From an uncultured Clostridium sp. (GTDB lineage: Bacteria; Bacillota_I; Bacilli_A; RF39; UBA660), in contig CAYFQM010000001.1 of assembly GCA_964345385.1 (NCBI GenBank), forward strand, positions 630 through 51,496: DNA of 50,867 bases. The letters run 5' to 3'. This document shows positions 40,676 to 46,308 of the stretch, piece after piece. The notes under the pieces are model-generated. The model was not told the origin of the DNA and made no database searches. It worked only from the letters and a program-made list of their open reading frames with translations. How positions within the stretch are numbered: the first letter of the stretch is position 1; every line of letters begins with the position of its first letter. Both the position numbers and the translations under genes were made by a program.

Positions 40676-40993
40676 TTAATTTGATAAATCTCTAGCTAAA
40701 TCAGCAAGATTTTTATTAACTGCTTCAGTAGTTCCCTTAGCAGCTTTAATCATATCAGAAAACGTTTTTACACTTGATACATACGCATCAAAATGAGTTT
40801 TAAATTGTTGATACCTTGCAGCTAAATTTTCACTAGCTGTCCCTACAAAAACATCTTCATGACCTAAACGTTTCATTGTTATATTGAAACTTTCAAAAAT
40901 CGCTTCCATTTCTTTTGAATCTGCTAATATAGAATCTGCTGCCTCTTGAGTTTGGGCAAAATTCATACTAACAGAAGCATTAATATTACTCAT
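40676..40993 (-). CDS. WXG100-superfamily (Esx-like) small helical protein with FVG in place of WXG
   Basis: 105 aa, predicted helix-turn-helix. Central HEDVFVGTASENLAARYQQFKTHF resembles W-x-G-x-A...F of EsxA-type proteins. No tryptophan. Last gene of the essC operon. Confidence 0.6.
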   Translation of the reverse strand: MSNINASVSMNFAQTQEAADSILADSKEMEAIFESFNITMKRLGHEDVFVGTASENLAARYQQFKTHFDAYVSSVKTFSDMIKAAKGTTEAVNKNLADLARDLSN

Positions 40994-41018
40994 ATTTATT
41001 TCTCCTTATTTATACACA

Positions 41019-41324
41019 TTAAAAGTTACTAGAACCCATACTATCTACAATAGCTTCATCTGCTCTAATAACAGTATTTCCTGCGTTAGTACAATAATTA
41101 CCATAATCTTTAATAGCGTTTTCCATTGCTACTAAATTAGGTTTAAATCCTCCTACTACCCTTCCAAACACCTTAGCAGATGGAGCAACATAATCTGAAT
41201 TAATTAAATTATTCACTGTTGTAAATATTTTGTTATATAACTTATTAAATTGATCTGCTTGTTCATGAAGCATATCTCCTGCCTTCTGTAATTCTCTTGG
41301 GTCTGCAACAAAACGATTTGACAT
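41019..41324 (-). CDS. Esx-like / T7SS small helical substrate candidate (no WXG)
   Basis: 101 aa, all-helical character, N-terminus ...FVADPRELQKAGDMLHEQADQF and C-terminus IRADEAIVDS typical of WXG100-like pairs. No tryptophan. Confidence 0.55.
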   Translation of the reverse strand: MSNRFVADPRELQKAGDMLHEQADQFNKLYNKIFTTVNNLINSDYVAPSAKVFGRVVGGFKPNLVAMENAIKDYGNYCTNAGNTVIRADEAIVDSMGSSNF

Positions 41325-41333
41325 ATTTTCCTC

Positions 41334-44600: not shown

Positions 44601-46245
44601 AATCAATTGTAGTTTCAACTCTATTTCCGTCATCTTCTTGATATTTACGAGACATATATACTTGTTCTAAATAAAATGAAACTTTAGTCATATCATCATA
44701 ATTATTTGCAAAAAATCTTATATTACGAGAATCACTCCATGTATGAGGTAATGTTTTAAAACTATCCCAAACATCACTATTAGTATCACTTATCATAAAT
44801 ACAAGTTTTAAATCTGCATATGATTGATATGTAGCAAGTTGCATAACCATACTTTTTAGCATAGATTCTCTATAAATTTGTTCTCCAATAACAACAAGTT
44901 TATTTCTACTTGTTAAACTAATAGACACTGGAGAATCGAGTATATCTACAGCACTTTTAGCAACTTTTTCTAATTCATCTTTTAATTCATCAGAAGACAT
45001 ACTAAAATCTTCAGAAGGATATGACAAGTTTATTTGAAGAGGTACCGTACCAATACCAACCCTAACATCAAGAAAATCTTCACTTTCTATTTGTTTTTGC
45101 CATAAATTTCTTTTTCTATTTAATATAATATTTCCCAAATCATTTGGATCAGGGTAGTTATCTAATAATATTTGTTTTTGATTAACTCTAATAGATTCAA
45201 TTTTTCTTCTTTTATCAGTTAAATATTCAATATATTTTGTTTGTCTTTCTTTCTCGCGAGCTTTTGTTTTTTTAGAATTATATTTTTTCATTAAAGTTGG
45301 CCATAATAAAGTTGAAGTAATCATAGCAAAAGCTACTAAAAGTGTAGGAAGAGCAGCACTAATATTTTTATCTCCTTTTAACATATTTGTAATTGTAGCA
45401 CTCATAGTTACAATTGAAGACATAGCCATTGTAAGCATAGGACCAACAGTGTATAAAATCGGAGTTTTATCTTCTTCTACTTTAGAAGGAGGACTTTCTA
45501 TTTTAAAATCTTCTTTAACAATAGAAGTTATAAATCTGGGACTTCTACTATAATAATCATTTTCTGAATATAATATAGCATTATCATCATCAACAGTTTT
45601 TAATAATTTAGATTTATAAACTGGAAAGTCAGATTGCACAATACTTTGTGAATTTATTTTAAGACCGTTATTAAAATTATTAATATTAATATATTCATTA
45701 AGAAATATTAATTTATATCCCATAATAAAAACAACATCACCATTTATTATTTCTTTACTATTAGTCTTAATATCATTAATATACATACCATATTTAGTAT
45801 CTTTATTTTCTATAAAACGTTTGCCTTCTCTATAACTTAAAATAGCATGATTAGGTGAAACTAAACTACTTCCTAAAAATATATTTGCATTAGAATCACT
45901 ACCCATGGTATATTCTCCTTCAAGAACAACCTTATATGGAGTAAAAGTCATATCATTTTCTTCACAAACATAAAGCAAAGCTTCATTTATTTTATTTTTA
46001 CTTAAAATACGCAAATAATAAAAACGATCCAATACTAAAGAGGTTTCAGCCAATTCTTTTCCACTAGCAAAAACCTTACAAACATCATTACTTTTAAGTA
46101 TCCAACTGTTATCTTTTTTCTCTATAGAAACTAAATCTCTTTCATTATAGTTTTCATCAATATCTTTTAATGAATAAGAGTCTATATCAATCGTTGGAAA
46201 TGGATACTTATATAACTTATCATCTTTAATTAGCACTATTTGCAT
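41668..46245 (-). CDS. essC: Type VII secretion FtsK/SpoIIIE-family ATPase EssC/YukB
   Basis: 1525 aa. N-terminal FHA-like region, two TM helices (aa ~265-320). D1 has [31 protein letters not shown] and [36 protein letters not shown]. D2 has [9 protein letters not shown]. D3 has no P-loop. Confidence 0.93.
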   Translation of the reverse strand: [1525 protein letters not shown]

Positions 46246-46279
46246 AAGTAACCCCTTATTCTATTTAGTTTCTATAATA

Positions 46280-46308
46280 ATCATACTATTTTATACATAA
46301 AGTGTCAA
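46280..46308 (-). promoter_or_regulatory. Sigma-A promoter of the essC operon
   Basis: Minus strand TTGACA (46308..46303), 17 nt, TATGAT (46285..46280), beginning 2 nt after the ffh stop. RBS AAGGGG before the essC ATG. Confidence 0.65.

Follow-up and report, generated by a model that had tools for sequence, protein, structure and literature searches.

The window, that is, the whole 50.9-kb stretch of DNA analyzed here (~26% G+C; contig CAYFQM010000001.1 of an uncultured Clostridium sp.), carries between ffh and recG four minus-strand open reading frames (ORFs), which encode an EssC-type ATPase, a ubiquitin-like protein and two small helical proteins of the WXG100 superfamily. The best explanation of this locus is a non-canonical, very reduced type VII secretion system (T7SS) operon that is typical of a clade of gut Bacilli, uncultured and low in GC, represented by 'Tenericutes' and 'Bacilli bacterium' metagenome-assembled genomes (MAGs). 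A first-pass annotation of the DNA had reported the four ORFs, the two flanking genes and a TTGACA-17-TATGAT promoter just after the ffh stop codon, and all of these were recovered. A Shine-Dalgarno sequence of good or strong quality precedes each ORF. The -35 hexamer of the promoter follows the ffh TGA with one base in between, and the promoter is the sole 11/12 match in 40300..46500. Promoter-like sites in the scanned AT-rich region occur at chance level (51 found versus 48 +/- 8 in shuffled sequences), and hence the evidence for the essC promoter lies only in its quality and position.

The spacing within the operon varies among relatives: the gap between essC and the ubiquitin-like gene measures 79 nt here and ~85 nt in the relative numbered L014 but only ~10-14 nt in most others. 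A perfect hairpin at the essC stop codon, too AT-rich for the terminator scan, may act as an attenuator or as a site of processing that separates essC from the small genes. The promoter-like site TTTACT-17-TATAAT in the same spacer is a possible internal promoter, with a match quality no better than that of many chance matches in this AT-rich region. Together, the two elements may allow the small genes to be expressed independently of essC. Because of them, a single transcript covering all four genes, as read from the sequence, is plausible rather than established.

EssC scored 987 bits against the NCBIfam model TIGR03928 (type VII secretion protein EssC; cutoff, 778), and Pfam detected an FHA domain and an FtsK_SpoIIIE domain (E 4e-41). 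The protein is built of an N-terminal FHA region, two predicted transmembrane segments (with the highest hydropathy peaks at residues 263-281 and 295-313), a DUF/stalk region and three ATPase domains, D1 to D3. The Walker B motif of D1 is FIITDE, at residues 838-843. The FHA-like N-terminus, the two transmembrane segments and the conserved D1 motifs claimed in the first-pass annotation were recovered. The P-loop of D2 is degenerate (GAPGSGTE), and D3 has none. A look-up of the exact EssC sequence found no record, but gut metagenomes contained more than 115 full-length EssC homologues with 43-99% identity; they include a group with 59-67% identity and a deeper one with 43-47% (members examined, 43-45%). 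The named records are those of 'uncultured Tenericutes bacterium' and 'Bacilli bacterium' MAGs. Among 117 aligned sequences of the clade, the D1 Walker A motif was identical in 116, and conservation was by far the highest in D1 (0.83, compared with 0.41-0.44 in the FHA region and 0.48 in D3), which indicates that the D1 ATPase motifs are under strong purifying selection. The D2 P-loop was degenerate throughout the same clade.

The best match of EssC in the PDB was Bacillus subtilis YukB in the core complex of T7SSb, the firmicute type (9qks, 408 bits), and this match covered only residues 208-988. Residues 1-207 remained unaligned, and the sequence of the FHA region matched no YukB or EssC FHA structure of the PDB; the N-terminal 240 residues gave only weak matches to generic FHA proteins, GarA and OdhI among them. 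In the alignment to these two proteins, the Arg and Asn residues of the phosphothreonine pocket are replaced (GR to GS and NG to YG), and none of the commonest motif variants listed for the 117 clade sequences has Arg at the pocket position. The TIGR03928 match, two transmembrane segments and intact D1 Walker A and B motifs are those of the membrane-bound EccC/EssC-type FtsK/SpoIIIE ATPase by which a T7SS is recognized, and an N-terminal FHA domain lacking a phosphothreonine pocket is, in addition, a property of T7SSb EssC.

The first-pass annotation had called the product of the second gene ubiquitin-like. By sequence this found no support, in that the 84-aa protein had no match in Pfam, NCBIfam or the PDB, even with a 10-sequence profile against the PDB, but by structure it did. 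An AlphaFold2 model built with 31 homologues was a beta-grasp fold with a predicted local distance difference test score (pLDDT) of 90, and Foldseek matched it to ubiquitin-fold proteins, including B. subtilis YukD (2bps, TM-scores 0.79/0.81), YukD in the T7SSb core complex (9qks_A, 0.78/0.83) and the ubiquitin-like domain of EccD5 (7np7_D2). On this model, the protein can be confidently assigned to the ubiquitin fold, with YukD as the closest relative. The C-terminus is RLLLI and thus has no Gly-Gly, as in the EsaB/YukD/TsxB proteins that are nearly universal in T7SSs. The gene lay directly downstream of essC at all loci examined.

The two remaining proteins, described as Esx-like in the first-pass annotation, fell below the curated WXG100 thresholds as single sequences, but profile and fold evidence supported the description. 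Pfam matched the 101-aa protein alone at E 0.017 (WXG100) and E 0.0065 (WXG100_2), and the 105-aa protein alone at E 3.1e-5 (WXG100; 24.6 bits versus a cutoff of 27.3). An exhaustive search yielded 62 representatives of the 101-aa family, of which 56 were aligned; Pfam WXG100 matched 17 of these 56, at best with E 5.7e-16. The profile of this family matched Geobacillus EsxA (3zbh) in the PDB over its full length (E 3.4e-6), followed by Staphylococcus aureus EsxA, WXG100 proteins of group B Streptococcus and Bacillus anthracis EsxB. For the 105-aa family profile, the top PDB match was S. aureus EsxA (E 0.003). The homologue search with the 105-aa protein returned one protein, 98% identical, and its AlphaFold2 model therefore rests on a single sequence (pLDDT 77.6); it shows a helix at residues 2-45, a turn at 46-52 (EDVFVGT) and a helix at 53-104. 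All top Foldseek matches of this model were Esx proteins, with the weak E-values expected for a hairpin. The two small proteins are related to each other distantly, at the profile level only (hhalign E 0.024), and their alignment places F-V-G of one opposite Y-I-S of the other at the WXG position. These data confirmed that both are divergent WXG100 members in which Phe or Tyr takes the place of Trp. Helical-hairpin WXG100 proteins encoded with the ATPase are a hallmark of T7SSs; the single homodimeric core EsxA of T7SSb is here replaced by two tandem paralogues, which are paired together with essC at 8 distinct loci.

The absence of EssA, EssB, EsaA and LXG toxins from the vicinity, also claimed at first pass, held wherever it was examined. 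A Pfam scan of all 35 further minus-strand ORFs of >=90 aa, with NCBIfam for the unannotated ones, revealed no EssB/YukC, EssA, EsaA/YueB or LXG protein in the window. None of these was found in the ~5 kb beyond the high end of the window either, which were read from L010, a 56-kb contig with a 99%-identical EssC. For relatives, precomputed Pfam matches of the genes within 10 kb of essC were inspected at ~14 distinct loci, and no YukC, EssA, EsaA, YukD or LXG match was present. EssB/YukC (PF10140 or TIGR03926-type), EsaA/YueB and EssA/YueC, the membrane components that characterize T7SSb, were accordingly not detected in the window, in the L010 extension or near essC at the related loci. At the loci examined, no membrane protein was conserved beside essC across the clade; the large proteins encoded near essC in relatives were of the Sec-signal-peptide type, with one N-terminal hydrophobic segment, or had no transmembrane segment. 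A DUF5050 beta-propeller was found neither in the window nor at related loci, and in no locus did the 10 kb on either side of essC encode a membrane Ser/Thr kinase, a PPM phosphatase, a DUF6382-FHA protein, a vWA protein or an AAA+ ATPase.

Several candidate partners were considered and rejected. Two membrane proteins near recG, of 603 and 693 aa, were tried as EsaA/EssB analogues and proved to belong to a block resembling a conjugative type IV secretion system (T4SS) of mycoplasma integrative and conjugative elements (ICEs). The PASTA kinase and PP2C phosphatase of the window were tried as TsxD/TsxF-like parts; their operon, however, is a housekeeping one at a distance of 34 kb, and a phosphothreonine pocket is lacking in the FHA domain of EssC. 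The 1113-aa and 1154-aa proteins of L019 were tried as EsaA and have no transmembrane segments. In L010, type IV pilin-like genes with N-termini KNGFSLLEILVSV and KNGFTLMEVLATI and a T2SSE/PilB-type ATPase gene lie 6-10 kb from essC, beyond proS, in a stretch that also encodes a Lon/PDZ protein; since housekeeping genes intervene, their closeness to essC is probably coincidental.

Comparison of the ~14 distinct loci (the scan of genome contigs gave one locus and that of metagenome contigs five) placed the T7SS module in at least five housekeeping contexts. Between ffh and recG, essC is followed by the ubiquitin-like gene and the genes for 101 and 105 aa (window, L010, L011). Between rsmE and serS, L014 has genes for a single-transmembrane protein and a coiled-coil protein and then the module, namely essC, the ubiquitin-like gene and genes for 115 and 109 aa; L001-L003 have the same site without the WXG pair. 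After xseB, the order is genes for 101 and 104 aa, the coiled-coil gene, essC and the ubiquitin-like gene, with a variable far flank such as leuS or genes for large proteins (L004, L005, L006, L008, L009, L019). In the rbfA context, essC and the ubiquitin-like gene are followed by toxin-like genes (L015). Finally, between Amidase_3 and SpoIID and phospholipase C genes, essC and the ubiquitin-like gene precede genes for 62-68 and 71-77 aa (L012, L013, L016, L017, L018). The survey of relatives proposed at first pass showed the same four-gene order in one other species, at 65% EssC identity (L014); the order also occurs in the deeper group, whose EssC is 43-45% identical and whose small proteins are shorter (L012, L013, L016-L018). 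The sole invariant partner of essC was the 83-85-aa ubiquitin-like gene, at all loci examined. A second assembly carries proteins 98-100% identical to those of the window. The minimal T7SS locus is thus a trait of the clade and not a quirk of one genome.

An additional gene, directly 5' of essC in 9 distinct loci (L001, L004-L009, L014 and L019 carry it), encodes a soluble protein of 122-184 aa that is predicted to be a coiled coil and has neither a family match nor a transmembrane segment. The window has no such gene (by tblastn), nor do L015 (rbfA context) or the group whose EssC is 43-45% identical. The protein may be a lineage-specific T7SS accessory or chaperone. A low-complexity protein of 343-384 aa with a single transmembrane segment is encoded upstream in two loci. 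Neither the coiled-coil protein, the 384-aa single-transmembrane protein, a 746-aa repeat protein nor the toxin candidates of relatives had a tblastn match in the window.

Candidate substrates were found in relatives. In L015, the genes directly 3' of essC and the ubiquitin-like gene encode three proteins without a signal peptide. One, of 440 aa, combines a helical N-terminus with a long tandem repeat of TPGQDKEETKPET and a C-terminus resembling SleB; the other two have similar helical N-termini and carry Peptidase_C39_2 or CHAP/NlpC-P60 domains. Two ~95-aa helical proteins, one matching WXG100 at E 6.6e-5, and a small Cys-rich ORF accompany them, and a 92-aa WXG100 protein is encoded among the candidate toxin genes beside essC in a relative. 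The L015 genes look like a polymorphic cassette of cell-wall toxins and immunity proteins for this T7SS variant. In L004, L005 and L006, a conserved trio 4-7 kb upstream of essC encodes a third WXG100-like protein (101-107 aa, E 1.6e-4), a protein of 343-376 aa and one of 725-749 aa, in which a helical N-terminus is combined with ~7 'KYGFDIFNEDGTIN' repeats and a C-terminal transmembrane anchor; the trio is a possible effector module. That these proteins of L015 and L004-L006 would be T7SS substrates is inferred from their architecture; the Pfam LXG model matched none of the candidates. Cell-wall-hydrolase domains in such candidates suggest a role in interbacterial antagonism.

The rest of the window is housekeeping in character: it contains rpoB, rplJL, prpC-prkC-rsgA-rpe, alaS, gatCAB, gyrBA, trmD, ftsAZ, rmuC and yebC, as well as recG, ffh, rplAK, nusG, secE and proS. 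All protein-coding genes lie on the minus strand, with a uniformly negative GC skew (-0.16 to -0.40); the plus strand carries only two tRNAs and a candidate small RNA (sRNA). This sRNA, of ~100 nt and convergent with the esx operon, would fold into two 5' hairpins followed by a C-rich and then a U-rich single-stranded stretch. The spacer between the esx operon and recG, in which it lies, had no Rfam match even at E<=1, and among 16 loci a 23-nt core of the sRNA occurred only in the same-species contig L010. The T4SS-like block among the housekeeping genes comprises the 603-aa polytopic protein, which weakly matches the transmembrane families MMCAP2_0566 and Mbov_0396 of mycoplasma ICEs; an ATPase of the VirB4 type that is apparently divided among three ORFs, overlapping or adjacent (107, 192 and 596 aa), the first two of which match the N-terminus of 'VirB4_plasma'; the 693-aa protein, which has a Cys-rich C-terminus and one transmembrane segment; and a coupling protein of the VirD4 type (PF02534, E 1e-49). 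Neither a relaxase nor an integrase was found in the window. The block may be the remnant of a mycoplasma-like ICE or, alternatively, a DNA-transfer system that has been domesticated.

The PASTA kinase and PP2C phosphatase, the only kinase/phosphatase pair of the window, sit in the conserved order rlmN-prpC-prkC-rsgA-rpe. This pair and ftsA/ftsZ in the window, together with murB and spo0A in the relatives L001 and L014, suggest a walled organism, possibly of spore-former descent, despite the 'Tenericutes' label on one related MAG. Bacterial alanyl-tRNA synthetases usually have ~870 aa; the alanyl-tRNA synthetase ORF encoded here ends at the tRNA_SAD domain and seems to have lost its C-terminal region, which fits a streamlined genome.

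Table. Positions of the T7SS operon, of other features of the window and of selected features at loci of relatives
Feature	Position	Strand	Details
T7SS operon	46308..40643	-	promoter, four genes and terminator
Sigma-A-type promoter	46280..46308	-	TTGACA-17-TATGAT; read directly; ~35 nt 5' of essC ATG
essC	41668..46245	-	1525-aa membrane FtsK/SpoIIIE-type T7SS ATPase
FHA domain of EssC	45730..45912	-	aa 112-172; Pfam FHA E 4.6e-8
Two predicted transmembrane segments of EssC	45289..45459	-	aa 263-319; hydropathy
D1 Walker A of EssC	44065..44088	-	aa 720-727; GMTGSGKS
Perfect 16-bp AU-rich hairpin over essC stop codon	41647..41682	-	followed by UUUU; dG -17.3 kcal/mol, z -5.0
Promoter-like site in essC-esaB spacer	41611..41639	-	TTTACT-17-TATAAT; 10/12 match
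esaB/yukD-like gene	41334..41588	-	84-aa protein; ubiquitin fold (beta-grasp) in structure model
WXG100-superfamily gene, 101 aa	41019..41324	-	'WXG' position is Y-V-A
WXG100-superfamily gene, 105 aa	40676..40993	-	F-V-G in hairpin turn
Intrinsic terminator of operon	40643..40678	-	GCGAUU-loop-AAUCGU, then U9; -8.8 kcal/mol, z -3.8
ffh	47620..46310	-	flanking gene
recG	40438..38414	-	flanking gene
Candidate ~100-nt sRNA	40504..40645	+	minimum free energy -34.6 kcal/mol, z -5.5
Promoter of candidate sRNA	40504..40532	+	TTGACA-17-TAGTAT
Terminator of candidate sRNA	40608..40633	+	11-bp, GC-rich, then T-run
L10 leader	4237..4347		Rfam RF00557
PrkC-like Ser/Thr kinase and PP2C phosphatase	5844..8329	-	three PASTA domains in kinase
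Alanyl-tRNA synthetase ORF	9430..11166	-	578 aa
Two tRNAs	20860..21014	+	
Conjugative-T4SS-like block	28832..37600	-	
Coiled-coil gene, L001	9614..9988		directly 5' of essC
Coiled-coil gene, L004	9477..9968		directly 5' of essC
Toxin-like cassette, L015	14914..19518		directly 3' of essC and ubiquitin-like gene
Conserved trio, L004	2825..6506		4-7 kb upstream of essC
Type IV pilin-like and T2SSE/PilB-type genes, L010	1..4562		

We consider it probable, at roughly 0.6, that the locus encodes a functional T7SS without EssB, EsaA and EssA. By analogy with solved T7SSa and T7SSb complexes, EssC would oligomerize, probably into a hexamer, in which two transmembrane helices per subunit line the export channel; D1 would hydrolyze ATP, and the oligomer would serve as both motor and channel. 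The YukD-like protein would be clamped between the FHA region and the DUF domain of EssC, as in the B. subtilis core unit, and may lock the EssC protomer in an assembly-competent shape. In the cryo-electron microscopy (cryo-EM) structure of that unit, YukD touches only YukB; it is held between three parts of YukB, namely its FHA domains, its DUF domain and a hairpin of D1, and promotes assembly (Oka et al., Sci Adv 2025, PMC12637312). Such a contact would explain why essC and the ubiquitin-like gene form an invariant pair and why an FHA domain that does not bind phosphothreonine is kept without EssB. The two WXG100 paralogues would form a heterodimeric four-helix bundle, again by analogy, which may dock on the variable C-terminal ATPase domain, be exported, and license the export of larger substrates; toxins licensed in this way would be encoded elsewhere. 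In this mechanism, a membrane partner homologous to EssB, EsaA or EssA would not be needed.

Several points weigh against this interpretation. To our knowledge, channel formation by EssC alone has been demonstrated for no T7SS. The Trp residue of WXG is absent from both small proteins, in which inspection by eye also revealed no convincing match to the YxxxD/E and HxxxD/ExxhxxxH export motifs. The conserved 122-184-aa coiled-coil gene of most close relatives is missing from the window, and the locus of this species may therefore be incomplete.

The remaining objections bear on an alternative that we regard as unlikely, namely that the organism has a conventional T7SSb whose genes are dispersed, with EssB, EsaA and EssA encoded elsewhere and assembled into the standard complex. 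Only ~56 kb of this genome was read, and these proteins, or non-homologous partners, may lie outside it. EssC also exceeds the cutoff of TIGR03928, the firmicute T7SSb model 'T7_EssCb_Firm', its best solved relative is YukB, and the N-terminal FHA domain is kept as in T7SSb EssC; by the ATPase alone, the system is therefore T7SSb-like. However, the genes of characterized T7SSb are clustered, and ~14 loci in the different contexts have no such gene within 10 kb of essC. Moreover, EssB/YukC is bound by the FHA region in T7SSb, and no similarity between the FHA region of the present EssC and that of YukB/EssC could be detected; two WXG100 paralogues stand in place of one EsxA. Systems without EssB have, in addition, been published (PMC11217815).

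A minimal core might instead depend on lineage-specific, non-homologous partners, such as the coiled-coil protein or a membrane protein encoded elsewhere, and would then be a multi-component subtype rather than an EssC-only machine. The position of the coiled-coil gene directly 5' of essC in 9 distinct loci, the single-transmembrane protein encoded upstream in two, and the presence of at least one extra predicted component in each of T7SSc-j (PMC11217815) are in line with this idea. We judge it quite improbable, because the coiled-coil gene is missing from the window, the rbfA-context locus and the group with 43-45% EssC identity, the protein has no transmembrane segment, and no membrane protein is conserved beside essC. 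Decay of the locus into a non-secretory remnant, whose exporter no longer works in this species, might account for the absence of the accessory genes of relatives and for the degenerate nucleotide-binding motifs of D2 and D3. We give it very little credence: none of the four ORFs is disrupted, each has a strong ribosome-binding site, and the operon keeps a promoter close to consensus as well as a terminator; the second assembly has nearly identical proteins; and the D1 motifs are invariant across 117 homologues, while the D2 P-loop is equally degenerate clade-wide.

A T7SS with EssC as its only membrane component would imply that the ATPase itself forms the export channel and that secretion can do without EssB/EsaA/EssA, or without the corresponding parts of other subtypes; which component forms the channel and which parts are truly essential is still debated for T7SSa and T7SSb. 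With only four genes, such an operon would also be a compact construct to reconstitute in a heterologous host and to study by cryo-EM, by which pore formation by EssC alone could be tested. Candidate cell-wall-degrading toxins beside the system in relatives point to interbacterial competition in the gut. The further proposal that this is the simplest T7SS yet seen, an eleventh subtype that is restricted to uncultured gut Bacilli of low GC content, with EssC as the sole membrane component, a ubiquitin-like clamp and a WXG100 heterodimer, is tentative, and we hold it at somewhat below even odds. In the literature, we found nothing linking RF39, Tenericutes or Mollicutes with T7SSs or WXG100 proteins, and the locus extends the catalogue of T7SS variants to abundant uncultured gut bacteria that were overlooked by RefSeq-based surveys.

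The concept of minimal Gram-positive secretion by 'WXG100 + FtsK/SpoIIIE ATPase' was reportedly put forward by Pallen in 2002 as a bioinformatic hypothesis based on shared gene content. The conserved content of the present locus consists of the same two families and a ubiquitin-like protein; that concept, however, concerned what systems share and not a demonstrated stand-alone machine. Among characterized systems, T7SSb is similar in its EssC-type ATPase with an N-terminal FHA domain, two transmembrane segments and canonical D1, in the free-standing YukD/EsaB-like protein without Gly-Gly, in WXG100 cargo encoded within the operon, and in polymorphic toxins with helical N-termini, candidates for which occur in relatives. 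In contrast to T7SSb, the present system has no EssB/YukC, EsaA/YueB or EssA/YueC detected in the window or beside essC of relatives, an FHA region unrelated in sequence to that of YukB/EssC, two Trp-less WXG100 paralogues instead of one homodimeric EsxA, and no LXG domain detected by Pfam. The mycobacterial ESX systems (T7SSa), with their EsxA/EsxB heterodimer, share the tandem pair of WXG100 paralogues and an ATPase-associated ubiquitin fold (the EccD ubiquitin-like domain); EccB, EccD, EccE and MycP are absent here, the ATPase has an FHA domain, and the ubiquitin-like protein is a free protein.

The claim in the first-pass annotation that firmicute systems need EssB, EsaA and EssA has been overtaken by the eight variants T7SSc-j described from RefSeq, all of which lack these three proteins (Garrett, Higginson & Palmer, Microlife 2024, PMC11217815). 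T7SSc-j share the ATPase TsxC, and TsxA (WXG100) and TsxB (YukD-like) are almost universal, TsxA not having been found in T7SSi and TsxB not in T7SSd; each variant has at least one further predicted component, such as a kinase, phosphatase, vWA protein, FHA protein, AAA+ ATPase, EspG-like protein, beta-propeller or immunoglobulin (Ig)-like envelope protein (PMC11217815). T7SSg, the simplest published, resembles the present locus in having two non-identical WXG100 proteins, one ubiquitin-like protein and an ATPase, but its ATPase has no FHA domain, it includes TsgL, a DUF5050 beta-propeller, and it always adjoins Tad pilus genes, as T7SSh loci also do (PMC11217815). Here, by contrast, the FHA domain is present, no beta-propeller gene was seen, and the pilin/T2SSE genes of L010 are set apart by housekeeping genes. 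T7SSe, T7SSf and T7SSj of Bacillota share an ATPase with an N-terminal FHA domain and a ubiquitin-like protein, and T7SSe also two WXG100 paralogues. Unlike the present locus, they encode a kinase, PPM phosphatase, DUF6382-FHA protein, AAA+ ATPase or large Ig-like envelope proteins, and the phosphothreonine pocket of the FHA domain, lost here, is conserved in T7SSe and T7SSj; the kinase/PPM phosphatase, DUF6382-FHA, vWA and AAA+ genes that mark T7SSc, T7SSd, T7SSe, T7SSf and T7SSj do not occur beside essC. The stripped-down locus noticed at first pass is therefore a real EssC, ubiquitin-like protein and two-WXG100 module but not the earliest sight of a minimal system that had been only hypothetical, and because variants without EssB are already published, it is less of a surprise and represents a further variant of an established theme rather than a new kind. 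By gene content, it corresponds to none of T7SSc-j, and to T7SSb only in its ATPase core; it is probably an undescribed, unusually simple variant of the T7SS type.

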